Made by a program: the position numbers and the translations under genes
Assembly: GCA_965153455.1 (NCBI GenBank)
Contig: OZ234493.1
Span: forward strand, 19,458,213-19,522,212
From: Sphagnum compactum
Taxonomy: Eukaryota
Direction: 5' to 3'
DNA length: 64,000 nucleotides
In this document: in pieces, positions 4,500 to 25,110 of the stretch
How positions within the stretch are numbered: the stretch's first letter is position 1
Layout of the letters: every line of letters begins with the position of its first letter
The notes under the pieces: generated by a model
Told to the model about the DNA's origin: nothing
The model's database searches: none
Seen by the model: the letters and a program-made list of their open reading frames with translations, nothing else

Positions 4500-7400
4500 G
4501 TAATTCACTTGAATTTTGAACTAGGAAAACTATTCAAAATTCAGTATTTTTTGGAAATGCTATTGGATTTCTACAAATCCAAACACCTTCATTAAATCTT
4601 ATGCATCGAAAGTTTTTTAACAATACAAAGAGTGTGCCCAAATTCCATTATAATTTTTTATTTAAATGAATTTTCAATGAAAACATTGTTTTCAATAACT
4701 TTTTCACTATAAGTTGAAGCATTATGAAACCAACTTGATACACCTTTATTCATTGAAAACTTTCCAACAACACCAAGAGCATGACAAGATGCACCATTAT
4801 TTGGGAGATTTTAATGTGACAAATAAATAAAATAAACTACCTTCTTTCATAGATAAATAGTGAAGGTTTTCAAAGACCATAAATGAAGAAAAAACTTAAT
4901 AAAAATCACCATTCTAATATTTGATTTTTAGTTTGTAGTTTTTTTAAAAAATGATTAAAGATTTGTACTTCATATTTGGTTTATAGCCAAATTTGGCTAA
5001 ATCTTATTACGGATGATAGTTTTTTTTATTACAAACAAAAATTCCTAAAAAAGAACAATGACCATCACCTACATAATATATATTGACATCTTCACTTTTT
5101 TGGGTGAATCCTTTTATTATAGAAACTCCACATACACATCATACACCAAGTTTTAGATGAAATATAACCAATATATGCAGTGCTGGGCCATTTGGGCCAA
5201 TAAATTAGGTTTGATTTGGTAAGTGATCACATGATTCGATAGTTGAAATGGGTGTGTTTAGTGTTCCATCTACGAGTGTTAAAAAATTATCGTTAATTTG
5301 TTGAAGCATACTCACATGTGACATTGAAGAGCTTGTCATGATTTATTTTGTTTATGCCAATTGGAATGAATGTTTCACCTATTGATGAATGTGGTTAAAA
5401 TTCATTAAACATTACCCTACCATTTATTTTTTTGCCATGAATTGCTGTGCTTTGTTTTGGCAAGATGTTGGTCAAGTCTTGTAGAACCTTGGAGACAAAT
5501 GGGGAAACATCTTTGATGCCAAATTTTCTATTGTATTTTAGTGATGTTTCTTATTTTCCTTACCAATACAATGATAAAAAATGGAATGAATTTTCCTCAA
5601 TATAGGACATAATATTGTTATTCTAGGATCCACACTCTTGATGTAAGATTGAAAAATGAAATATAAAACTTAATTAAGCTCAATATGAAAAATTGGGTTT
5701 CATAAAACAAAAGTGGAGTTATAACCCAAGGAGCCAATTTCTAACACAAGATTGCATGTCTTAATAAAGAATTGAACATCCTAAATCATGGATCCAAATT
5801 TGTAAGAACTATTGAATAGTAAATGTTCCTACAAAAATCAAATAGTCATATTTTCAATTGAAAGGATTTAATTCGTTCCCTTGCAAAATTCCTTATATTT
5901 TGGAAAATTATAAGGTATTGTACTAAGACTTATTAAGGATTCTAAATTCTTGAAACCACACCTTGGTTCCTAAAAAGGTTAGTGGTTTGACACCTCTTGT
6001 GACAAAAATTACGAAGGTGCACTAATTGATCTTGACCATGTGTTTGTAAGAAATTCATTGAGAATGATATTGAAAGGAAAACTATGACTTTATGAACTAG
6101 ACTTATTGATGTGCATCATGATTAAGGACTAAAAGAGGATAATGGAAAATTGATTCTTGAAAACCATAATCTTGAAACAAAACACACAAATGAATGGAAA
6201 TAAATAACATAAACATGTAGACAACAAAATGTATTCAAAAGTATGTTTCACATGTTTGAAAATGAAATGTTGGGTGTTTCCATTGGGAGGGATTGTACCA
6301 TATTGGCTTCTATTTTCATGCCCACCTTTCCTTGAACATGCTTGGAATCTAATTTTAAACCCCAAGTTGCACACCAATTTGTAGTAAAGGTGGCATCACA
6401 AAAAGGAACAACAGAGCAAGACAAAGTTGTGTGTATTCTTTTATACATCAAGGGTGATAGGTATGTTCAAAAGAGGTTGTCAATAAATTATTGCAACTAA
6501 ATCACAATCCACAAAGATGACATGTGGGGTAGTTACAACATAGGGTGGTTCATTTTTTCTTCACATTTTATTGTCTACATATTGCATTTTATTCAAGTGC
6601 CATAAACATATGGTGAAATCATCAATGCAACAAAAACATTTACAAATTAAAAATGCCAATTTGAATAAGAACATGGACATAATGATGAAATTCAAAAACT
6701 ATCTACCAAACATATAGTCATGAACTTTGATTAAATTATTATAATTGTAGTAATTAATTTTGATTACTGTAAAAATATGAATAATTAATGTGAATATTTT
6801 GTATTTCTGATAAATGTTAAGTATAAATAAGTAATTTAAAAGTTATAAATACAATTTTTTTGAAAATTAAATTCATTACTGTAATTATAGTATAATTATT
6901 ACAAAAATTAGAACCCAATTTAATTATAATTTATGACATATGAATAGCTTAAATATTATATAACTATTTATGATAATAATATTAAATAAATAAATAATCT
7001 AAATAAAATGGTTTTATAATAAATAATTTGATTTAAATAATTTTACTATATAATTTTTATAATTTTTTTTTATTAATATGCAGAAATATGAAAAATATTG
7101 TAAAATTAATGTAGTAATAATAATTATTCACTTTCAATCAAATATTATAGGTTTTACATACAATAATTTATTATAATTGAACTATTTTAATTAAAATAAA
7201 TAAATAAATAAATAATTCACATTATAGTAAAATTACCATAAGAATTGTAAATTTTAACTGAAATTATAAATTATAAATATTATTATTAAGTGAAATTACA
7301 TATTATATAAATTTTAAATAAATTTTTAACATTGTAAAAATAATAATAATTAGGGTAAATTTTTTATGTTGGAAGAATAATTATTTACTGAAATTAATTA

Positions 7401-8319
7401 ATTATAAACAATAGACATATTAATTTGAGAGTAATGATGATAATTACATTAATTATTGGAATTACGTTATGATTAGTGTAAAAACTTGAAATATGGATTT
7501 TAATTATAAAATTTAAGTTTTAAATTATTTGATTATCTATTTAAAAAATTGGTAACTAATTTAATTACAATAATTCTACTATAATTATTGTACTTGTTTT
7601 TTATACACCCATGGATGTTTGATGTATTGTCACCTTTACATATACCCTAATATGAGGCTAATATACAATAATATGTTTTCAACCATGCCTAATTAATCCA
7701 AGAGAATAATACATATATATGCCATTATGAATGTGGAGTACATAATGTATACATAAGGCTTAGTATACATAATTGTTAGTCACCATAACATAAAATACAC
7801 GACTTACCCTATACAAAATTAGTAACATACATAAGTTAATGTATAAAGAAGTATAAGATAACATTTTTTGGTCACTTTTGCAACTAATGGGCCATATAAA
7901 GGTCTTCTAAAATGAAAATAATGTGAAAAATAATCACATTGGAAGAATGAAAAACCTGTAAATTGTTGCAACATAGTCATAAATGTGACCAAAAAATGTG
8001 ATGTGATATTCAGTCGCAAATGTAACCAGTGTTACTTGTCAACAACAATTAGTCGCATGTAATCACAAATCATTTGATTACATTTTAGCCTTTCTCTACG
8101 CGTGACAATATTTTTAATGATAAAAAGGTCCTTTTTTTTCTTGGGCATCAAGCTATCCTTGTCCATATATATTTTCTCATGCATTGAAGTGTAGGAAAAA
8201 CTAGTTTTATTATATTTGTTCTAAATGCCAAATTTCTTTTAACATGGAGTTGGGTGAAAGGTCACATCATGATGGGAATAATGCTTTCTTGGAAGTTGAA
8301 TCATTTTTGCCACCATCTA
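4500..8319. repeat. Left outer arm of a large inverted duplication (partner 25825-29615)
   Basis: Continuous reverse-complement match over about 3.8 kb. In one sample, 6261-6322 versus 27798-27859 differ at about 7 of 62 nt. The paired ORFs 6129-6377(-) and 27640-27870(+) translate similarly. Confidence 0.95.
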
Positions 8320-10461
8320 AGTAAAGAGAAATCAAACTTCAACATGTAACTTGGGAAAGCCCAAGAAAAAACTGTGCAAAGAAAGCTCATGATAATTTCA
8401 TGAAGAAGCACCACATTGCTATGCCATCCAGAGCTTGAAGGAGGATTTTCAGCGGGGACCAAAGGTGTCTCAATCTCTGCACAGGGATGCACAACATCTC
8501 TCTTTCTTTTTGGCGGCCCTTGTGAAAGATCAACTCCTTTTCGCTTGAGGCCATCTGAATTTCCCATATTTTGCACTACTGAAATTCATTTTGCTCACTG
8601 GTCTCATAAATATTTTTCTCTTAACCTTTTGTTCTCATAAAACCTGCTACAAATCCTTTGCCATCCCTATAACATACACAGGGTATGATGGGTGTCCCAC
8701 ACATCACAGATTCCCACAAGCTAAGCTGATCTTTCCACTAGATCTCCCCCACAAAACACCAACCCCTTTCCTCTTCACGATCTCCCTGGAATTCTCACAC
8801 TCTTCTCTCACTCCTTTTCGACTTTTCTTGCAGATGTTTCTTTTTCTTCATTTTCTCGGTGCCCAGAAAATTCAAGAAGGGTTTTGTCATGACTCTTCAG
8901 ACTCTAGTAGACGCGCTTTACCGATTTCTTGGCCACTGAACAATTCATTACTGTCTTTTGTGGAACACATGTCTCTATTTTCTATTTTCTACTCATAATT
9001 GAGGATGGAGTATGCAACGTCACCTTGAGACTTGTGAAACACGCTTTACTTTTTCCCTCTGGCCTCCTCCATTATTATCATCATGACTTTTGTTCACATC
9101 CACTCATCGACCTCTCTTTTACCAAAAGACTATAGCCGAAAAAAAGCTAAGTCATAAATTTTAAAAGTGCTAAAATCAAATTCTTTTTAAGATTCTCAAT
9201 AGCCGAAATTCAACCAAATTCAAAGAAAAATCGTCAAATTTCCTTACATGCCTTTCAGTAGGTAGCCAAAATAAGAGAAATATGTTTAAAATTTTCTAAT
9301 GCCATATTTAGCTCATAGCCAAATCTGGCTAAATCTTCCTACCGATGATAGCCACTTGGGCTATGTCTCAAAACCGACCAAAAAATTATTCATCCACACG
9401 TTTTCTGCTGTTGGCTGATTTCACCCAGTGCATTATTGAAGCGCTCTGCCAGAGCTCATGTTGCAGGCAATGCATAATTAATTGGGCCTTGGGCGAACCG
9501 GCCAGGATGAATTGACCCCCACAGTGGGATCACTGTAAAAACCCCCAAAACCCATTTAATTGGCCGTATTAGGCCCCAAGATTTATAGATTTGGACTTGG
9601 GGACCTGATTTAGTCTAGGGAAATGATATTTATAAATATTGACGAGCATTTAAATGAGCTTTGTGGTTTTTACCATGATCCCAATGTGGGGGTCAATTTG
9701 CCTTGTTTGGGTGAACCTGGACTACACTAGAACCACCGTGAAAATCCGAAAGTTTTTGGGGGCACCTTCAAAACATTATAGATACATGGAGCATCCTTAG
9801 AACATCATCACCCGACACCTGCAAACACCCCTTTTCATTAAATCTTCCAGCGGGATAGCCTAACTCATGCTCCTCTCCAGTATTTATGTCGATTTGCCGT
9901 GGTCATTTTAACCCCTTTAAATGCCACTCTGGATGTGGACAGTGACTAATACTGGTCCAGATGTAAAGACATAAATGGTTTTTGAGTGTTTAAAGGGATT
10001 TTTATGACGTTTGTGGGTGGCGATTGTGATCATTAAAAACTATTCTATTTTAGCATAAAGCAGTTTTTTGCAGTTTTGGGGGTGGAGATGATCTTAGACA
10101 AAATCAGGGTCTCTAAATCGACAAAGACAGCCTCTAAGAGGCCTCACTCAAGAAGGTGAGTGTACCAGTGCAGGTGCTGGTTCGCCCTGGCCAGTGGCTA
10201 TGATTGGAGGAGCCTGGGGGGAGAAGGAAAAATTACATGGACAGTCATAGCAAATAAATCCAGAGTAGAAAAACAAAAGAAATTCTGTACAAAGGAATGA
10301 TTTTTCTTGGTGAATCTTGGCACTATGGCTACAAAGGAAATTTGAAGAAATTGGGAAAATTCGTTATAATAGTGTGAGTTCGAAAAAAAAATGGTGATAA
10401 AATGGAAATAATTGACAAAGTTTACAACCTACTAAATTGAAAAAATTAGAAAAAGAAGACT
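8320..10461. repeat. Left inner arm of the inverted duplication (partner 14913-16935)
   Basis: aacttcaacatgtaacttggg at 8335 is the reverse complement of the sequence ending near 16920. ORF pairs 8301-8576/16694-16915 and 8591-8998/15931-16820 match. Confidence 0.95.
9503..9705. mobile_element. Foldback/MITE-like insertion found only in the left inner arm
   Basis: About 50-bp inverted ends aattgacccccacagtgggatca... / ...tgatcccaatgtgggggtcaatt; absent at the matching site near 15580. Confidence 0.75.
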
Positions 10462-10982: not shown

Positions 10983-11786
10983 TAAGAGCAGCTGCACAGG
11001 TACTGGGTATATGGGCCTGAACATTGAATTCTGGCTCAGCACAGTGGCTTTGGGCTTTGAGATTTTCCCTGAGAATACCAAGGCAGACAAAAGGCTCAGC
11101 CAAGGACAATACCGCCTGTTGGTTGTTAGATAGACTGTGAGACAGGTGGTTGGTCCAAGTGGGTTGCTAATAGCTATTATTGGTTGCTGATCATTTACAG
11201 TGTAAGTTTTAGTGTGGGCTCGATAAAAAAATTAAAAAGAAACTAATCCTGGTTTTGGGAAATATTGTATTCCATTGCCATATACTAAGAGCACCTATGG
11301 AGCTGCTCTAAGGATGATTTTAGCTACAACAGAAGGTGTCTTTGCATTTCAAGTGATTTCAGTACATTGAATGAAGCCACTAATTTAAATAAATTGAGAC
11401 TAGTTGAAGAATAATGAATTTACTGATTTAATGGGGGGGGGAACTAGTGAACTGCACGCACATTTTGTAAGATTTAGAAGCAAACACAATGTGTTTTTGT
11501 AGCTTGGTACTAGTATAGGTGCTGATTTGGTCAAGCTGTAATTATACCAGGCATAAGCACTATGAGTGGTCCCATGGCCTTGGGATGTGTGGCCACAGCA
11601 TGGGAGGGTATGCCCTGTAAATAGTGAAACAGTGGGTTCCAGTACCATCTTTTCCTGACTTTACAGATAACTTTAATATCACAAGTTAGATTGGGGTAAT
11701 GCCAACCAAGTGGTGCGTTCTCCCTGAAATAGGCCTGCCCTGGCTTTGGCCAGTGTGGGTTCTTTGGGGGTAAGACCTTGCCATAT

Positions 11787-12675
11787 CTTAATGCCATTTT
11801 TTACTAAAAAAACATGTATTTATAAAATCAAGATTCAAAGTTAAAACATTTGGTTCTGGGCTTTTAAAAAAATCATAGGAAATCAAAGAAAGTTTATAAG
11901 ATTAAAATAGTATGGTGACAATCTCGTTCTTTTGTGAAAAGAAATTTGACTTATTTGATTTTCATATAAATCGATTCATAATTGAAAATGTTCCATTGTA
12001 ATATTTTGACCCATGTTTTGTAATTGTTCATGTATGTACAAGATTTCATCTTCTCCCCGCTGGACTAAAGATTTATGTTGTAAATTTTGTAATTCAAACT
12101 TTGGGTTTAAATAATCTCCGCTCCACATTCGACAAATAGTACTTACTTTCAAACCACCCAAAAAAAAAAATTCAAAAACATCTTTTGATGTTGTTTATCC
12201 AAGTACTCATAAAAAAATTTCAATTTAATCCAAAACTCTTCATTATCATGACCCCTAATGAGACTTTGCTCACTTTTCAATTTGTTCAATGCACCCTTCT
12301 AGATTTCCAATTTTTTAGTATTGAAGAAAAAATAACCCAATACTTTAAGACTTAGAGGGAACCCCCACAAGCATTTATAATCTTTGTACATATATTTTTG
12401 AAATTTTTTGTTGGAACATGATTTGCATTATCGAATGCATGGAACATAAATAATTCCCTTGCTTGCTCTTCCTCCAAAGATTTCATGATCATTTTTTCAT
12501 TCTCACTTACATCAAATTTCAGAATTTGTCAATTTTGACAATCCATAAGTACTTTGCTTTTAGAAGTTGCATTCTTGACAACCTTTTCAATGAGAAGTTG
12601 CAAGGATGTAAGGTTCTCCGACTTATCAACATCATCCATCACCACTTACACTTTCTCCGATATCACTGATTGCCT
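11787..12675 (-). pseudogene. Antisense NB-ARC fragment, an unspliced copy homologous to about 20055-20948
   Basis: The reverse complement gives kinase-2, RNBS-C and GLPL-like segments plus GGLKVSTICRMWSGDYLNPK...LYIHEQL, followed by the adjoining intron sequence. It contains frameshifts and stops. Confidence 0.92.
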
Positions 12676-13128
12676 AATCTTGCAGTGGTGTAGCGTAATT
12701 CATGCTCCTCTCTAATATTTATGTTGATTTGCAGTGGTCATTTTAACCCCTTTAAAAATTAGCATGGATTTGGACAGTGATTATTACTGGTCCAGATGTA
12801 GACATAAATGGTCTTTGAGTGTTTAAAGGGGCTTTTATGACATTTGTGGGTGGGGACAGTGATCCTTTAAAACTATTCTATTTTAACATAAAGCATTTTT
12901 TTCCAGTTTTTGGGGTGGAGATGATCTTAGACAAAATTAGGGTCTCTAAATCGACAAAGACAGCGTCTAAGAGCCCTCTCTCAAGAAGTGAGTGTACCAG
13001 TGTAGGTGCTGGTTCGCCCCAGACAGTGGCTATGATTGGAGCAGCCTGGGGGGAGAAGGAAAAATTACATGGAAGGTCATAGCAAGTAAATCCAGAGTAG
13101 AAAAATAAAATAAAAAATTTGTAGAGAG

Positions 13129-14912: not shown

Positions 14913-16935
14913 CAGTATTTTTTTCTTTTCTCTTTTCTTTTTCTCAATTTTGTGGTTTGTAACTTTGTCAAAAATTTCCATTTATTGAGCATTATTTTCT
15001 CGAATTGACACTATTAAAACGAATTTCCCCAATTTCTTCAAAAAAACGTTTAGCCATAGCGCGAAAATTCACCCAAAAAAATCACTTTTCTACACAGAAT
15101 TTCTTTTGTTTTTCGACTCCAGATTTATTTGTTATGACTGTCCATGTAATTTTTCCTTCTCCCCCCAGGCTGCTCCGATCATAGCCACTGGCCAGGGCGA
15201 ACCAGCACCTACACTGGTACACTCACCGTCTTGAGGAAGGCATCTTAGAGGCTGTCTTTATCGATTCAGAGACTCTGATTTTGTCTAAGAGTATCTCCAT
15301 CACAAGACTGTAAACAACTCCTTTATGTTATACTAGAACAGTGTTTAATCATCACTGTCCCCACCCACAACCGTCATAAAATTCCCTTTAAACACTCAAA
15401 GACCATTTATGTCTTTACATCTGGACCACTAATAGTCACTGCATGTCCAAATACACGTAGAAATAAGCTTTTAAAGGGGTTAAAATAACCACTGCAAAAT
15501 TGAAATCAATACCGGAGCGGAGGAGGGGTTACGCTATGCTGCTGCAAGATTTAATGACAAGGGGTGTTTGCAGGTGTAGGGTGGCCGGTTCACCCAAGGC
15601 CCAATTAATCATCCATTGCCTGCAACATGAGCTCTGGCAGAACGCTTCAATAATGCAGTGGGTGAAATCAGCCAACAGCAGGAAACGTGTGGAGCAATAT
15701 TTTTTGGGTGAGTTTTGAGATATAGCCCAAGTGGCTATCATCGGTAGGAAGATTTAGTCAGATTTGGCTATGAGCTAAATATCGCATTAGAAAATCTTCA
15801 ATATCTTTCTCTAATTTTTGGCTACCCACTTGAAAACCATGTATGGAAATCTGACGATTTTTCTTTGGATTTGGTTGAATTTTGGCTATTGAAAATCTCA
15901 AAAAGCATTTGATTTTAGCACTTTCTAAATTTATGACTTAGCTTTTTTTCGACAATAGTTTATTGGTGAAAGAAAGGTCGGTGTGTGGATGTGAACAAAA
16001 GTCATGATGATAATAATGGAGGAGGCCAGAGGGAAAACGTAGAAAGCGCGTTTGACAAGTCTCAAGCTGACATGAGTAGGAAATAGAGACATGTGTTCCA
16101 GAAAAGAAAGTAATGAATTGTTCAGTGGCCAAGAAATCGGTAAAGCGCGTATGCTAGAATCTGAAGAGTCACGGCAAAATCCTTCTAGAAGTTTCTGGGC
16201 GAGGAGAAAATGAAGAAGAAGAAACATTTGTGAGAAAAGTCGCAAAAGGAGTAAGAAAAGAGAGTGCGAATTCCAGGGAGATCCTGAAGAGGAAAGGGGT
16301 TGGTGTTCTTTGGAGAGATCTAGTGGAAAGTTCAGCTTGCGAGAATCTGTGATGTGAGGGACACCCATCATACCCTGTGTATGCTATTGGGATGGCAGAG
16401 GATTTCTAGCAGGTTTTATGAGAGCTTCTTCTTCTGTGAGAAAGGTCGAAAAAGGAATAAGAAGAAAAGAGTGTGAGAATTCCAGGGAGTTCGTGAAGAG
16501 GAAAGCAGTTGATGTTTTCTGGCGAGATCTAGTGGAAAGATCAGCTTAGCTTGTGGGAATCTGTGATGTGAGGGACACCCATCATACCCTGTGTATGCTA
16601 TTGGGATGGCAAAGGATTTGTAGCAGGTTTTATGAGAGCAAAAGGTTAAGAGAAAAATATTTATGAGAGCAGTGAGCAAAAGGAATTTCAGTTGTGCGAA
16701 ATATGGTAAAGCAAAAAGGAGTTGACCTTTCACAAGGGTCTTCAAAAAGAAAGAGAGATGTTGTGTGGACCCCTGCCGCGATTGAGACACCTTTGGTCCC
16801 GGCTGAAAATGCTCCTTCAAGCTCTGGATGGCACAGCAATGTGGTGCTTCTTCTTGACCTTATGATGAGCTTTCTTTGCACAGTTTTTCTTGGGTTTTCC
16901 CAAGTTACATGTTGAAGTTTGTTTTTTCTTTATTT
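14913..16935. repeat. Right inner arm, immediately upstream of the NLR, with an internal ~200-bp tandem duplication (about 16228-16425 and 16436-16639)
   Basis: Reverse-complement match to 8320-10461. The block ...gtgatgtgagggacacccatcataccctgtgtatgctattggg... occurs twice. Confidence 0.93.
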
Positions 16936-17865
16936 TTTTTATTTTGTTTCGGTGTTGACAATTTTCTTTGACCCTTACAACCATGATAGCTTATTGTCCT
17001 CACAAAGCATCAGGAGAAGGAGGTCTAGTTCAGAGTTGAACTCCCAACCAACAACTTCACAACCATACCTTTTAGTCACTAGGATACTTGAATGTCCCCC
17101 ATCATTTACAAGTTTCCTTGTCATACATTTTTACTTTGCTTACTTTCCAGTATGGTTGTTTAGATAAAAACGATATGAAATAATGTTTAAAACAATACGA
17201 AATGGAGTCATCATATTAGCCTCTTACATTAGGTCGGTAACTCATTTGCTAACAAGTAGAATTGGTGAAAGGGAAATTTGTCAAAATTTGTCATTGATTA
17301 AGAATATATTGAACTTGTCAGGATTGGAACTTTCATTACAGATTATGAGTTAAGTTCAATGTGTAGTTCTTGATCCAACAACCTAGAGCAAATTATTAAA
17401 ATGCTCTTGGACTTTCTTATTGGGTTTGTGTTCGAATTCCTAAGCCATCAAAGTTCTTAGAGGCCCAATTGTTGGGGGAAGATGTCATGAAATACAAGTG
17501 AACCAAACTAGATGGCTCAGTTAGTCAACCCAAACTTGAAAGAATCCAATCCGAAGCATTAACCTTTATTGTTTGGCATGCGTTCCACCTGTTATGTAAC
17601 AACGTTTGCTTATTGAACTATGTTTTCAAACTTTGAGGTCTATGACAAGTGAATAATCTTCATTTGTTAGTCATACAATCTAGATTTGGTATTCTTTGAT
17701 TCATCTATTATTGTCATCTTGTTAAACTTAATATTTTCGACTAATTATTGCCTTTGTTTAACTACTATAATTTGTATATTGCATTTATCTTGTTTCATGT
17801 ATAGTCTACTAATTTCCAAGAAAGGTATGAAGAATTGTGTTGACTCGTTTTCATTTTCTTTGCAG

Positions 17866-19581
17866 AAATATCTAGTGCATGATTTAAATCCCAGCTACAA
17901 TTCCAATAATCCAACCTTCACCATCATTTTTTTTCATGGGATTGTTTTTGGCACGAATGATGCATGGAAGGAAACATGGACAACACGTCCCACCAATGAT
18001 AGAGAAAAGTGCATATGTTGGCCAGAAAAGTGGCTACCTGAAGACTTGAACAACAATGTTCGAATTTTATCATTGTCCTATGATTCTCACATTGTGGCAA
18101 GTGTTCACGATGATGTGACTGAAATTGGCAAAAACCTCATTCAAAGTTTGATTGCAAATTCAAGGTGTGAAAATCTCCTCTACTTATTTGAAAAACATAT
18201 ATATATATATATTTTTTTTATTTTTTTTTATTTTTTTTCAGCTATATTTCCAACGTAACACATAGAAGATGAGTTGTACATTAACAAAAGAATGTACACA
18301 CTTACACATTTGTGCATAATAATTGCTTTACCAAAACATGGTTGTCACATTTTCTAGGTAGATTAATGGAATCAATAAATGAAAAATGACACATGACAAG
18401 CAAATCAATTATGAACTTATGGCTTAGGTCATGTGTCAATTGGAAAATTGCTCCAAGTATAATAGGATGAATTTGTGCATGTTAATACAATGTTGATAAT
18501 GGAATTTTGGTGCATTGTTAAATATTTTGTAGGTATCAATCCCTTTGGGATGGACCAGTGGCATTAGTTGCTTATAGTTTTGGAGGTCTTGTACTCAAAA
18601 GCTTGGTGGTTGAAGCTCACAAACGTGTATATCAACGGCTAACAAATGGTTTGGATGATGAAATACAAAAATGTTGTAAAACATTTTTGAACAATGTCAA
18701 AGGTGTAATATTTTACGGTGTACCACATTCTGGTGCTAGCAATTTATCAAAATATTTCAAATGGCAATGTCAACAAATCAACACGTTCAACAAACATTTT
18801 GCCCCACTTGGTTTTTCAAGAAATTAAAAACCTTTCAACAAACAAATGCAATCCCTTTCAAAGGAGTTTAAAGATGCTGTTCATGAAGACTTCAACATTT
18901 ATGAATTTGGCGAAGGATTACCAATCAACAAGAATTGGGTAAAATTTTCATTGTATCACATTGAAAGTTATTTTCATTAGTTAAACATTTTTGTACTGTC
19001 AAAACTTGTGTGAAATCATGTACTCAATACTTCTGAATATATCAATGTGGTGAATGGGTCATGTGTTTTATGAACTTTGTTTCATGAATTACTATTGATG
19101 GAAATGAAATGTGATTGATTTCAAACATTAGGAAATAGGTTTAAAATTTCCCTTCATCAAATCAATTCCACATAAATATTTTAAAGGAAAATCATAACAT
19201 CATTAAAACATGTAAGATTCCTAATTAAAAACCAATAACTTTGTGATGTATTTATATAAGTTGTTTGCCAAAGGGTTGAAGGAAATTACTTGTATACAAT
19301 ATTTCATTATTATTCAAACATCAATAGTTATTAAGTTATAGTTTCCACTACCATTTGGTTTATAAGTTAAAGGATAAGTGAACAAACAAATCAATAAGTT
19401 TCATTAACTTAATTTTTTGCACATGCAGGGAATTTTAGTGCCATATGTCTCAGCTACTCAGTTGTCAAACAACAACCATTACAAAATTGAGGATGCTAAT
19501 CACTTCACAATTTGTAAGCCACCAAACAAGGATCATGCAAGCTACTTTTTATTATTACAATGTTTGAAAATATGTATGAAG
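17866..19581 (+). CDS. N-terminal alpha/beta-hydrolase (SERAC1/PGAP1/SesB-like) domain exons of the NLR
   Basis: Spliced translation reads ...IIFFHGIV...CWPEKWLPEDL...VRILSLSYDS...GPVALVAYSFGGLVLKSLV...VIFYGVPHSG...GFSRN*KPFNKQM...FGEGLP...DANHFTICKP. The frame continues cleanly past the TAA to the GT donor at 18939. Confidence 0.85.
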
Positions 19582-22500
19582 GTAAAAACATCAAATTTAA
19601 GTCTTTTGATTTCATATATGTTCATGTAATTTGAAACACACTCGGTCACAGCACATTTGATGTGTTTTGCATATGCAATGTCATATATAATGATTATCAA
19701 ATAAGAAATATAGCATATAAATGACCTATATTTTGTGAATTTTGACAGAAAAATATATTGCTTCCACGTTTGCCATGTCATGAGGTGGCGTTGATTGACA
19801 AAGCACGAGACATAAACATCTTGTTACAAAAGCAATCTATTGTTGGTTTGGTTGGAATGGGTGGGATTGGAAAAACCACTTTGAGTCAAAAATTCTATCA
19901 TTTGTTCCACAACCAATATGACAAATCTAGTTTTTTGGAGGATGTGAAATCAAAGGACAATATCAATGATGTCATTAAACAACTCCTACATGATTTGTGT
20001 GGCAAAAGGTTATGCAAGGATGAAAATGTGAATCAAGAACACCTTGACGAAATCAAGCAATGTATGATATCGAAAAAAGTGTTAGTGGTGGTGGATGATG
20101 TTGGTAAGACGGAGAACCTTACATCCTTGCAACTTCTTGTTGAAAAGGGTGCCAAGAATGCAACTTCTAAAAGCAAAGTACTTGTGAATTGTCGAAATTG
20201 GCAAATTCTAAAATCTCATGTAAGTGAGGATGGAAAAGTGGTCATGAAATCTTTGGAGGAAGAGCAAGCAAGGGAACTATTTATGTTCCATGCATTCGGT
20301 AATGCAAATCATGTTCCAACAAAAGATTTCAACGATATATGTATGAAGATTATAAAAGCTTGTGTGGGGCTCCCTTTAAGTCTTAAAGTATTGGGGTCTT
20401 TTTTATGCAATAATAAAGAATTGGAAATTTGGAAAGATGCATTGAGCACATTGAAAAGTGGGCAAAGTTTGACAGGGGGCAATGATAATGAAGAGCTTTG
20501 GAATGTATTGAGAATTTCTTATGACCATTTGGATAAAAGACATAAAAACATGTTTTTGGATATTGCTTGTTTTTTTGGTGGTTTGAAAATAAGTACAATT
20601 TATCGAGCGTGGAGTGGAGATTATTTACACCCAAAACTTGGATTACAAAATTTACAAGAAAGATCTTTAATCGAAGGGGTAGAATGTGGAATCTTGTTCA
20701 TACATGACCAATTACGAGACATGGGTCGAAATATTGCAATGGAATTACCAATTATGAATCGATTTGTATGGAAATCAAATGAATCAAATTATTTTTTACA
20801 AAAGGATGAGGTTGTCATTCTATTTTTTCAATCCTATAATTTTATTTCAATTTCTTATGATTTTTTTAATGTCCAAAACCAAATGTTTTAGCTTTGAATT
20901 TTGATTTTATAAATACATGTTTTTCTAATAAATTTTGGCATTAGGATGAAATGTTATTTTGCATTGATAACCCTTTTGTTTTCATTTCATGTGATAGGTG
21001 GTGGAACATTTAGAGGGCATTTCATTGAAAAAATGTGTCGATTTGCCTTTGTTGTCCAAAATCGACTCAAAGGGATTTCCCAACCTTAGGTTGGTTGACC
21101 TAACAGAAGCTTCACCAACTATTGTGGAAAATTTTATCAAACAACGAAATTTGAGTAATGTTAAATGGTTATGCCTCAAAAAATGCATGATGGAAAAATT
21201 GCCAAGTAATTTGTTTTCTTGTTCACAACTTCGAATGCTTGATTTGGCACAATGCAAAGAATTGAAAGAACTACCTTCATCTATTGGCCAAGTGAATGCA
21301 CTCCAAGAGCTTGATTTGTCAGGGTGTTCCAACTTGAAAGAATTACCTTCATCTATTGGTCAACTGAATGCACTCCAAAAGCTTGATTTGCATATGTGTT
21401 CCAATTTAGAAGAACTACCTTCATCTATTGGCCAATTGAATGCACTCCAAGAACTTGATTTGTCAAAGTGTTCCAACTTGGAAGGACTACCTCCATCTAT
21501 TGGCCAATTGAATGCACTCCAAAAACTTTATTTGTTAGGGTGTTCCAACTTGAAAGAACTACCTCCATCTATTGGCCAATTGAATGCACTCCAAGAGCTT
21601 TGTTTGTTAGAGTGTTACAACCTGAAAAATCTACCTTCATCTATTGGCCAATTAAATGCACTCCAAAAGCTTGATTTGCAAAGGTGTTCCAAGTTGAAAG
21701 AATTACCTTCATCTATTGGTCAATTGAAGGCACTCCAAGAGCTTGATTTGTTAGGGTGTTCCAACTTGAAAAAACTACCTCCATCTATTGGCCAATTGAA
21801 TGCACTCCAAAAGCTTGTTTTGTCACAGTGTTCCAACTTGGAAGAACTACCTCCATCTATTGCCCAATTGCATGGACTCCAAGTGCTTGTTTTGTCAGCG
21901 TGTTCTAACTTGGAAGGACTACCTCCATCTATTGGCCAATTGAATGCACTCCAAAAGTTTGATTTAGGAGTGTGTTCCAAGTTGGAAAAACTACCTTCAT
22001 TTATTGGCCAATTGAATGCACTCCAAGAGCTTAATTTGTCAAGCTGTCCCAAGTTGAAAGAACTGCATTCATCTATCGGCCAATTGAATGCACTCCAAAA
22101 GCTTAGTTTACGATGGTCTTATAACTTGAAAGAACTACCTTCAGTTATTGGCCAATTGAATGCACTCCAAAAGCTTGATTTGCATATGTGTTCCGAGTTG
22201 AAAGAATTACCTTCATCTATTGGCCAATTGAATGCACTCCAAGAGCTTGATTTGGGAGTGTGTTACAAGTTGAAAAAATTACCTTCATCTATTGGTCAAT
22301 TGAATGCACTCCAAAAGCTTGATTTGCATATGTGTTCCAACTTAGAAGAACTACCTCCATCTATTGGCCAATTGAATACACTCCTAAAGCTTTATTTGTG
22401 GGATTGTTCCAACTTGAAAGAATTACCTCCATCTATTGGCCAATTGAATGCACTCCAAAAGTTTAATTTGCAAATGTGTTCCAAGTTGGAAAAATTACCT

Positions 22501-23826
22501 TCATCTATTGGCCAATTGAATGCACTCCAAGAGTTTTATTTGTCAGGGTGTTCCAACTTGAAAGAACTACTTCCATCTATTGGCCGATTGAATGCACTCC
22601 AAAAGCTTGATTTGCAAAAATGTTCCGAGTTGAAAGAATTACCTTCATCTATTGGCCAATTGAATGCACTCCAAGAGCTTGATTTGGGAGTGTGTTACAA
22701 CTTGAAAGAACTACCTCCATCTATTGGCCAATTGAATGCACTCCAAAAGCTTGATTTGTCAGGGTGTTCCAACTTGAAAGAACTACCTCCATCTATTGGC
22801 CAATTGAATGCACTCCAAAAGCTTGATTTGTCAGGGTGTTCCAACTTGAAAGAACTACCTCCATCTATTGTGCAATTGAATGCACTCCAAAAGTTTAATT
22901 TGCGAATGTGTTCCAAGTTGGAAAAATTACCTTCATCTATTGGCCAATTGAATGCACTCCAAGAGTTTTATTTGTCAGGGTGTTCCAACTTGAAAGAATT
23001 ACCTCCATCTATTGGCCGATTGAATGCACTCCAAAAGCTTGATTTGCAAAAATGTTCCGAGTTGAAAGATTTACCTTCATCTATTGGCCAATTGAATGCA
23101 CTCCAAGAGCTTTATTTGTGGGATTGTTCCAACTTGAAAGAACTACCTCCATCTATTGGCCAATTGAATGCACTCCAAAAGTTTAATTTGCGAATGTGTT
23201 CCAAGTTGGAAAAACTACCTTCATGTATTGGCCAATTGAATGCACTCCAAGAGCTTGATTTGTTAGGATGTTCCAACTTAAAAGAACTACCTCCATATAT
23301 TGGCCAATTGAATGCACTCCAAAAGTTTAATTTACGAATGTGTTCCAAGTTGGCAAAACTACCTTCATCTATTGGTCAATTGAATGCACTCCAAGAGCTT
23401 GATTTGTTAGGGTGTTCCAACTTGAAAGAATTACCTCCATCTATTGGCCAATTGAATGCACTCCAAAAGCTTGATTTGCAAAGGTGTTCCGAGTTGAAAG
23501 AACTACCTTCATCTATTGGCCAATTGAATGCACTCCAAAAGCTTTATTTGTGGGGTTGTTCCAACTTGGAAGCATTACCTCCATCTATTGGCCAATTGAA
23601 TGCACTCCATGAACTTGATTTGTGGGGTTGTTCCAACTTGAAAGGACTACCTTCATGTATTGGCCAATTGAATGCACTTCGAAAGCTTGATTTGTTGGGC
23701 TGGTCCAATTTGGAAGGACCACCTTCATCTTTTGGCCAATTGCATGCATTTCAAAAGTTTGATTTTTGCAAATGTTCCAACTTGAAAGAACTACCTTTAT
23801 GTATTGGGCAATTGAATGCTCTCTGA
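17866..23826 (+). CDS. Hydrolase-NB-ARC-LRR (HNL-type) NLR immune receptor. Exons 17866-18164, 18533-18938, 19429-19581, 19749-20810, 20998-23826. Start exon not located. One in-frame TAA at 18825-18827 makes this allele a possible pseudogene.
   Basis: GT-AG introns keep the reading frame across all five exons. Hydrolase motifs FFHG, AYSFGG, YGVPHSG and DANHFTICKP; NB-ARC P-loop GMGGIGKTT, kinase-2 LVVVDDV, GLPL, FLDIACFF and IHD; then a 24-aa LRR array. Confidence 0.9.
19749..20810 (+). CDS. NB-ARC domain exon
   Basis: ORF 19758-20891 carries P-loop, kinase-2, RNBS-B (SKVLVNCRN), RNBS-C, GLPL, RNBS-D and an MHD variant (IHD). Acceptor tttgacAG ends at 19748; donor GT at 20811. Confidence 0.95.
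21229..23820 (+). repeat. Coding tandem array of 36 x 72-bp LRR units, consensus LQ(K/E)LxLxxCSxLKELPsSIGQLNA
   Basis: Units counted in the 942-aa ORF; 21229 + 36 x 72 = 23821, the codon just before the TGA. The nucleotide core tctattggccaattgaatgcactcc recurs in most units. Confidence 0.97.
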
Positions 23827-25110
23827 AAGCTTGATTTGTGAGGGTGTTGCAACTTGAAAGAACTACCTTCATTTATTGTCCAATTCAATGCATTCCAAGA
23901 GCTTGATCTACGAAGGTGTTCTGAATTGAAAGAATTAGCTTCATCTATTGGTCAATTGAATGCACTCCAAAAGCTTTATTTGTTAGGGTGTTCCCACTTG
24001 AAAAAACTGTTTTCATCTATTGACTAATTGAATGCACTCGAAAAACTTGATTTGCGAAGGTGTTCTAAGTTGAAAGAACTACCTTCATCTATTGGCCAAT
24101 TGAATGCGCTCTGAAAGTTTGATTTGTGTGAGTGTTCCAACTTGAAAGAACTACCTTCATCTATTGGTCAATTGAATGCACTCCAAGAGCTTGTTTTGTG
24201 CGAGTGTTCCAACTTGAAAGAACTACCTTCATGTATTGGCCAATTGAATGGACTTCGAAAGCTTGGTTTGTCAAAATGTCCCAACATAACTACCCTCATC
24301 TATTGGCCTATTGAATGCACTCAAAAAGCTTGATTTGTCATGGTGTTCCAACTTGAAAGAATTATTTTCATCTATTGGCCAATTGAATGCACTCCAAAAG
24401 TTTTATTTGTTAGGGTGTTCCAACTTGAAAGAACTACAATCATCTATTGGCCGATTGAATGCACTTTAAAAGCTTGATTTGAATGGGTGTTCCAGTTGAA
24501 AAAATTATCGTCATCTATTGGTCAATTGAATGCACTCTAAGAATTTGATTTGTTAGGGTGTTGCAACTTGAAAGAACTACCTTCATGTATTGGCCAATTG
24601 AATGCACACCGAAAACTTGATTTCAATAAGTTGAAAAAATTATCGTCATCTATTGGTTAATTGAATGCATTCCAAGAATTTGATTTGTCAAGGTGTTGCA
24701 ACTTGATTGAAACTACCTTCATTTATTGACCAATTGAATGCACTCCAAATTTTTATTTATAAAACTTCTACAACTTGAAAGCATCATCCAAAAAATACAT
24801 TCATCTATGGGCGAATTGAATGCACTCAAAGTTTTTCATTTGTCATGGTGTTCCAATTTGAAATAACTAGTTTCAACTATTGGTCATTGAGTGCACTTGA
24901 GAATTTTGATTTGTGTGAATGCTTCAACTTGCAAGAATTATTTGCATGTACATTGGCCAATTAAATGCATTCCAAAAGTTTTAGTTGTGGGAGCTTAATT
25001 TATACGAGCTTATAGGAATTACTTACGTTTATTAGCCAATTTAATGCATTCAAGGAACTTAATTTGTTAAGGTATTTCAATTTGAGATAATTACTTTCAT
25101 CCATTGCCGA
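23821..25110 (+). pseudogene. About 17-18 degenerate LRR units continuing downstream of the stop codon
   Basis: The same 72-bp unit continues with stops (ctctga, gactaa, ctctaa) and small indels, and diverges more toward 25.1 kb. Confidence 0.9.

Follow-up and report, generated by a model that had tools for sequence, protein, structure and literature searches.

The stretch of DNA analysed here (the window) comprises 64,000 nucleotides of contig OZ234493.1 from Sphagnum compactum. It carries on its forward strand a gene of the nucleotide-binding leucine-rich repeat receptor (NLR) kind that ends in a highly regular array of leucine-rich repeats (LRRs); the make-up of this array, its variation and the state of the gene copy are the subject of this account. 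The frame at 19746-20891 matches the Pfam family NB-ARC (E 2.6e-34; 119 bits, cut-off 23.5), with the P-loop GMGGIGKTT, and WHD_ROQ1, a winged helix of the Roq1 type (E 1.5e-12), and the array matches LRR_14 (E 4.4e-116) together with eight other LRR families. The top database match, at 100% identity, is P0002, a partial sequence that carries the label Sphagnum compactum. At E <= 0.001, more than 2,100 proteins were retrieved; the 120 best of these show 79-100% identity, and those with an organism name are all from Sphagnum. A preliminary description of this DNA had taken the gene for a plant NLR from a bryophyte, an identification that these matches confirm.

Mapping with the S. fallax protein P0124 (tblastn) places six exons on the + strand, from ~16703 to 23826 (Table 1), with the end of exon 5 approximate, as it was derived from P0124. 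Spliced joints at four of the five introns are found in RNA-library contigs of close relatives (GT..AG joints at 16842-17865, 18162-18531, 18937-19428 and 19579-19747), and none in two DNA runs. The exons at the N-terminal end are 82-90% identical to P0124, which matches the putative serine esterase family DUF676 of Pfam (E 7.1e-5; 22.8 bits, cut-off 20.3); the window's own frames over hydrolase exons 2-3 give no Pfam match. Since the N-terminal exons resemble P0124 and P0124 in turn matches DUF676, the gene can be classed as an alpha/beta-hydrolase-NB-ARC-LRR protein (Hyd-NLR) of Sphagnum, with the hydrolase assigned by homology only. These bryophyte hydrolase-NLRs (HNL) are reportedly treated in Xue 2012. 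Five full-length Sphagnum proteins of the family end inside or right after a repeat unit and have no C-terminal domain.

Tandem Repeats Finder detects the array at 21262-24749 with a period of 72 bp (score 4229; 48.6 copies with 81% matches), and cutting 21229-23820 every 72 bp gives 36 units in a single open frame, which bears out the 36 units of exactly 72 bp counted earlier. The open frame extends stop-to-stop, in the standard code, over 942 codons (20998-23826). All 36 units fit the motif L-x-x-L-x-L-x-x-C-x-x-L-x-x-L-P-x-x-I-G-x-L-x-x, and their pairwise nucleotide identity averages 83.8% (range 69-99%). A 30-base core of the unit is matched 39 times with at most 3 mismatches, on the + strand only and between 21277 and 24748, against none expected from 100 shuffles. 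Metagenome contigs were scanned with the conserved segment that precedes the array, yielding 40 loci, in 35 of which this segment shows 71-96% amino-acid identity; 35 loci were analysed, five partial matches being dropped.

The repeats continue past the end of the open frame. The non-coding tail consists of 17 local matches to the unit consensus, several of them partial or gapped, and contains stops and small indels: four in-frame stops fall in the first 144 tail codons, against none in the 942 codons before. Hence, the preliminary description had the in-frame extent of the array right, but had overlooked both that the TGA lies inside a unit and that some 17 further units follow. The TGA at 23824 was considered as a conserved stop and ruled out, as the three of the 40 loci that align there at >=90% read GAA, CAA and TAA. 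A change from CAA to TGA, which takes two bases in unit codon 2, is seen in two tail units four apart (23821-23826 and 24109-24114). The same change in both units hints at a block duplication after the stop had arisen, and suggests that the non-coding tail, too, was rearranged at some time.

Table 1. Features of the Hyd-NLR locus and neighbouring features; positions are those of the window.
Feature	Position	Strand	Basis or remark
Exon 1, ATG of 'MVKQKGVDL...', basic Pro/Ser-rich N-terminus	16703..16842	+	tblastn with P0124
Exon 2, first half of putative alpha/beta-hydrolase (DUF676-like) domain	17865..18162	+	82% identity to P0124 residues 40-155
Exon 3, second half of putative hydrolase, GxSxG-like 'YSFGG', premature TAA 18825-18827	18531..18937	+	translation
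Exon 4, linker from hydrolase to NB-ARC	19428..19579	+	tblastn, 84% to P0124 residues 287-337
Exon 5, NB-ARC (~19830-20525) and Roq1-type winged helix (~20526-20738)	19747..20816	+	Pfam; 100% to P0002
Pre-LRR segment, start of exon 6, non-repetitive	21004..21228 (start approximate)	+	kept among paralogs
36 in-frame LRR units, 72 bp = 24 residues, consensus LQKLDLSGCSNLKELPSSIGQLNA, codons 5/7/8 hypervariable	21229..23820	+	
TGA closing the open frame, codon 2 of 37th unit	23824..23826	+	
Non-coding tail, ~17 decayed units, 78-95% identical to unit consensus	23821..25106 (end approximate)	+	
Second NLR of the same family, in pieces	11785-12682, 8319-8834, 6228-8319	-	
Protein kinase frame, 642 codons	39745-41673	-	Pfam Pkinase

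Variation among the 36 units is unevenly distributed. Amino-acid entropy is highest at unit positions 7 (2.92 bits) and 8 (2.91), followed by 5 (1.80), 14 (1.68), 11 (1.29), 3 (1.27), 17 (1.15) and 13 (1.06), and it stays below 1 bit at the remaining 16 positions. In a parsimony count based on a neighbour-joining tree built from the units, codons 5, 7 and 8, which make up 9 of the 72 bases, took 57 of the 161 inferred changes (binomial p 8e-14). These three codons accumulated 51.5 nonsynonymous changes over 7.35 nonsynonymous sites; in the other 21 codons, the scaffold, 14.35 synonymous sites took 33.5 synonymous changes. The resulting ratio of nonsynonymous to synonymous change (dN/dS), dN(5,7,8) over dS(scaffold), is 3.0 (p 2.5e-7), rising to 4.4 with a tree built without codons 5/7/8, and on the same counts dN/dS within the scaffold is 0.62. 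Pairwise Nei-Gojobori estimates agree in direction (0.48 vs 0.139). Entropy and change counts thus agree with the earlier claim that variation is concentrated at the x positions of LxxLxLxxC and just after them, all eleven four-residue words cited for it are found in the units, and the per-codon check that had been suggested gives a nonsynonymous excess at these codons.

The same tendency is present in related arrays. In 13 of 13 such arrays, with 12-71 usable units each, dN(5,7,8)/dS(rest) exceeds 1 (range 1.06-4.91), with p <0.05 in nine of them; arrays with fewer than 12 in-frame units were left out, as were L025 and L026, which do not keep the unit register throughout, and L028, which has the same units as L027. 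Among 422 units from 35 Sphagnum-labelled proteins, variability is greatest at positions 7, 8, 3 and 5, and 190 distinct three-residue words occur; 12 of the 21 words of the window are private to it. The window array still bears the functional signature of its family.

An AlphaFold model of the 942-residue frame, computed from the single sequence, adopts a regular solenoid with a 24-residue period (mean pLDDT 85.6, pTM 0.66). Nearly every unit in it has a strand at positions 3-7 followed by a short helix (17-21), and its top PDB matches are long LRR solenoids (GSO1/SGN3, SHOC2, Leptospira LIC11098, FLS2). A strand at 3-7 makes positions 3, 5 and 7 its outward-facing residues, with position 8 directly after, so that the variable codons come to lie on the predicted concave beta-strand face. 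A published account of tomato LRRs (PMC4030839) assigns the strand of the concave face to positions 3-5 of the motif LxxLxLxxCxxL, in agreement with the AlphaFold strand. The predicted placement of the strand also supports the preliminary assignment of the variable residues to the concave recognition surface.

The array contains traces of its own turnover. Units 18-20 recur as units 24-26 with one or two base differences per unit, which corresponds to the duplication of a six-unit block. Units are more alike at even shifts (0.858, 0.849 and 0.870) than at odd ones (0.831, 0.831 and 0.828), pointing at a two-unit super-motif. Positions 3 (E/K) and 17 (S/P) tend to alternate between successive units, giving a 144-bp super-repeat. 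The units at the edges, 1, 35 and 36, are the most divergent, with 13-14 differences from their best partner. The hypervariable word N-R/Q-M is always accompanied by K-K-E/A-K-S at positions 3, 11, 13, 14 and 17; such ties between hypervariable words and scaffold variants indicate that unit types are propagated as whole units. This anatomy is what ordinary unequal crossing-over and conversion are expected to produce.

Comparison with the metagenome loci extends this picture. The number of in-frame units among the 35 loci varies from 0 to at least 72, with at least 72 in L007, 68 in L030, 49 in L018 and 38 in L022, and most of the loci share a conserved first unit. In L007, 72 LRR units of the same family lie in a 1,828-codon open frame that begins at 2190 and runs off the contig; if the assembly is correct, the LRR domain is extremely long for that of an NLR. 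Compared with the window, the array as a whole is 4 units longer in L003, about 15 shorter in L005 and 11 shorter in L002; these loci, taken from metagenome assemblies, differ by ~5% in their flanks and are treated here as related loci. L003 can be aligned collinearly with the window throughout the gene, with 94.8% nucleotide identity in the pre-LRR segment, and its decayed tail and 3' flank are in register with those of the window (mean ~0.94). The in-frame units of the two loci, in contrast, show a likeness of ~0.86 whichever register between -6 and +6 units is chosen, no better than random pairs. Coding units that have turned over next to a non-coding tail that has remained collinear point to selection rather than mere instability, provided that the contigs are correct. 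Arrays of the same kind are found in proteins labelled as six other Sphagnum species as well as in the 35 loci, and the pattern is family-wide in Sphagnum.

The copy in the window is interrupted upstream of the array. The TAA in exon 3 reads '...GFSRN*KPFN...' where relatives have L, and it breaks the frame that would otherwise lead across all NLR domains; the domains downstream are intact. In contigs from four public runs, compared over 16600-21250 only, all 22 that cover the site have T at 18826 (TTA), one of them, 177 bases long, differing from the window by a single base, and L003 and L038 read TTA as well. As the TAA is present in none of the related sequences examined, the stop is private and recent, and a private stop in exon 3 makes a young pseudogene the likely state of this copy. 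The window copy is therefore probably not a working receptor, which speaks against the receptor function attributed to it earlier. An NB-ARC-LRR product starting downstream of the TAA may still be made. The N-terminus 'MVKQKGVDL', which stands in place of 'MGNSYGLKGKGVDL', was considered as a second lesion and dismissed: L003 has the same N-terminus, so that it is a feature of the lineage and not a lesion.

Taken together, we consider it likely that the region is the LRR sensor of one member of a large family of Sphagnum Hyd-NLR immune receptors, a tandem array of TIR-NLR-type 24-residue units shaped by recombination and selection, in a copy that has recently become a pseudogene. As the anatomy of the array shows, unequal crossing-over and gene conversion between units maintain a uniform scaffold and alter the number and order of the units. 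Selection would favour amino-acid change at positions 3, 5, 7 and 8, a step that we infer from the statistical signal. Located on and just after the predicted beta-strand, these positions would line the concave face. LRR proteins bind ligands at their concave face. Recombination and selection together could in this way create new surfaces quickly over evolutionary time, in what would be a germline, population-level process rather than the work of a dedicated machine. The preliminary interpretation is right in kind, as regards a homogenised sensor array, a hypervariable face and repeat turnover. Of the repeat-shuffling diversification system that it proposed, the part that stands is the difference in unit number and order among related loci; no sign of a dedicated or somatic mechanism was seen, and as unequal crossing-over and selection suffice, no dedicated shuffling system is needed.

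Several points weigh against this reading. The dN/dS estimates come from parsimony on short, recombining units of 72 bases, and are crude, with few synonymous sites; the proportion of synonymous differences inside codons 7 and 8 is high too, and four of the 13 related arrays have ratios of 1.06-1.33, not significantly above 1. Exposed LRR positions are under weaker constraint in any LRR protein. The metagenome arrays, if they stem from short-read assemblies, may be chimeric or collapsed, which would weaken both the unit counts and the contrast between scrambled coding units and an orthologous tail. Of 24 sequencing runs, 20 contain part of the stretch, none with more than 0.36 of the sampled words of the locus, so that the unit count of the window rests on the assembly record, and the annotated protein P0002 is only partial. 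With the TAA in exon 3, no full-length Hyd-NLR can come from the window copy, and its array may now be drifting. The literature examined contains no ligand or phenotype of any Sphagnum Hyd-NLR.

The strongest of the alternatives, although an unlikely one, is relaxed constraint: the array would be a structural or autoinhibitory solenoid, in which codons 5, 7 and 8 are exposed and free to vary and recombination homogenises the rest. The four arrays without a significant excess, the crudeness of the counts and the stop-interrupted state of the window copy are all compatible with it. Free drift, however, is expected to give a ratio near 1 and not of 3-5, as opposed to the 3.0 of the window and the 1.8-4.9 (p <0.05) of nine of the 13 other arrays, and the 190 different words in the 422 units likewise argue against it.

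Somewhat less probable still is that the array merely displays neutral minisatellite dynamics in a dead gene, a selfish expansion and contraction of repeats that produces a pattern without function. The TAA in exon 3, the decayed tail of ~17 units and the fragments of another NLR nearby would all fit such a history. Yet the absence of stops from the 942 codons, against four in the next 144, and the scaffold dN/dS of 0.62 are at odds with it, and the TAA is recent, being absent from the 22 contigs of the four runs and from L003 and L038. Moreover, the tail, similar in its repeats but non-coding, is collinear with L003, whereas the coding units are not.

We regard it as very improbable that the number and order of near-identical units were simply mis-assembled. 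Repeat arrays are reported to cause assembly errors (PMC6868369), and even the closest sequencing run shares only 0.36 of the words of the locus; on the other hand, the units, 84% identical on average, can be told apart, the frame stays open over 2.8 kb, and like arrays are present in the proteins of the six other species and in the 35 metagenome loci. Hardly credible at all is a dedicated or somatic diversification, by cassette assembly as in lamprey VLRs or by templated mutagenesis: it has a resemblance of outcome and nothing else in its favour, whereas differences between units fall at all three codon positions without bias to one base, unit types have spread in the form of complete units and blocks, every one of the related germline loci has a fixed array of its own, and the sole other Pfam-recognisable large frame of the window is a protein kinase.

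The Sphagnum array shares a number of properties with the fungal NLRs of high internal conservation (HIC), to which it had been compared at the outset. Its Psim, computed from the published formula (criterion of PMC13449251) and not with T-REKS, is 0.793 over the 36 units and 0.851 without positions 5/7/8, reaching the HIC threshold of 0.70 and thereby upholding that parallel. Like HET-E, HET-D and NWD of Podospora (PMC4986451, PMC13449251), the Sphagnum gene has an NLR sensor of tandem near-identical repeats, each hypervariable at a few positions with a surplus of nonsynonymous change, and a repeat number and order altered by recombination, here among related loci. With 84% nucleotide identity, the units fall within the lower part of the 80-100% range given for HNWD repeats. 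Unlike in the fungal proteins, the repeats are LRRs and not WD40, ANK or TPR, the ATPase is a plant-type NB-ARC, and Sphagnum has no repeat-induced point mutation. HIC repeats, with LRRs among those surveyed, are enriched in ATPase-bearing proteins across life, and the HIC mode 'apparently also occurs' in plant NLRs (PMC13449251).

The preliminary description had also contrasted the array with degenerate LRRs of angiosperm NLRs, a contrast that does not hold in that form. Equally regular arrays are present in TIR-NLRs of Eutrema (labelled TAO1, P0141, 27 units), Populus (labelled RPV1-like, P0137/P0170, 16-18 units) and Cardamine (labelled RPP1-like, P0175, 19 units), and also of the conifer Cryptomeria (labelled RPV1, P0202, 15 units). 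As they came from a similarity search with a repetitive query, they are a biased sample, in which only profile-fitting units were counted; their mean unit identity is 69-75%, against 70% for the window by the same measure. Such arrays are therefore not peculiar to bryophytes. The seed-plant TIR-NLRs share with the Sphagnum gene the motif LxxLxLxxCxxLxxLPxxIGxLxx and the Roq1-type winged helix, and their most variable positions, 2, 3, 5, 7 and 8, are much as in Sphagnum; in place of the hydrolase of the Sphagnum Hyd-NLR they have a TIR at the N-terminus, and their arrays do not reach the lengths of the Sphagnum extremes. A literature search turned up no description in print of TAO1-type arrays as homogenised repeats.

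Hyd-NLRs are known in bryophytes, and Sphagnum members are mentioned (PMC11218826). The order alpha/beta-hydrolase, NB-ARC, LRR of the present gene is that of the bryophyte Hyd-NLR/HNL proteins, whose NB-ARC groups with bryophyte TIR-NLRs; repeat arrays are not discussed in the main text, as judged from its five occurrences of 'LRR' (PMC11218826). No paper describing Sphagnum LRR arrays was found in a search judged by title and abstract.

A further parallel is offered by tomato Cf-2/Cf-5, which have 24-residue LRRs with a tandem two-unit super-motif of highly conserved repeats; the LRR number varies from 20 to 33 among paralogs and orthologs, and a six-LRR difference separates two specificities (PMC4030839). 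The 144-bp super-repeat of Sphagnum resembles the two-LRR super-motif of Cf-2 (PMC4030839). Unlike the Sphagnum NLR, Cf-2/Cf-5 are extracellular receptor-like proteins with LRRs of the plant-specific LxxLxLxxNxL type. A two-unit period was also observed in P0204, an ENA protein of 1562 aa that matches Ras/Roc-type GTPase families of Pfam and has LRR units of a related motif, recurring every 48 residues as 15 units that are 92% identical. From its sequence, P0204 appears to be a ROCO-like protein with a homogenised two-unit LRR array.

As the window copy is probably a fresh pseudogene, it carries less weight by itself, and the Sphagnum Hyd-NLR family is of more interest than this locus. Knowledge of how new specificities arise in plant NLRs is based mostly on flowering plants, whose LRRs tend to be irregular, so that diversity has to be followed across paralogs and alleles. 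A family with mutually alignable units offers a much cleaner read-out of the residues under selection, and its arrays a natural scaffold for receptor engineering. Homogenised arrays with a variable binding surface are a known route to new receptor specificities, and the Sphagnum family would tie plant NLR evolution to the HIC mode of fungi and, more broadly, of life at large (PMC13449251). We put forward as a tentative proposal, and one that we are inclined to doubt, that Sphagnum Hyd-NLRs are the land-plant counterpart of the fungal HIC NLRs: a large family with few to more than 70 units, in which the LRR sensors would be reshuffled quickly enough for individuals to differ and selection would act on the in-frame units only, the coding units being scrambled between loci and the non-coding copies of the repeat remaining collinear. 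Arrays of more than 70 units probably form multi-turn solenoids. A practical problem is that such arrays become annotated as partial proteins, as with P0002, and that short-read metagenome assemblies of them may err.

Elsewhere in the window, the minus strand holds pieces of a second NLR of the same family (Table 1). Its NB-ARC piece is split over three frames with 49-79% amino-acid identity to P0124/P0122, and a piece resembling exon 1 and its upstream region is directly followed by sequence like the 3' flank of the L005 and L002 arrays (82-86%), with no LRR array between the two. These pieces look like a gutted or rearranged copy. The protein kinase frame, likewise on the minus strand, encodes a complete domain (Pfam Pkinase, E 6.6e-70) and is unrelated to the NLR.

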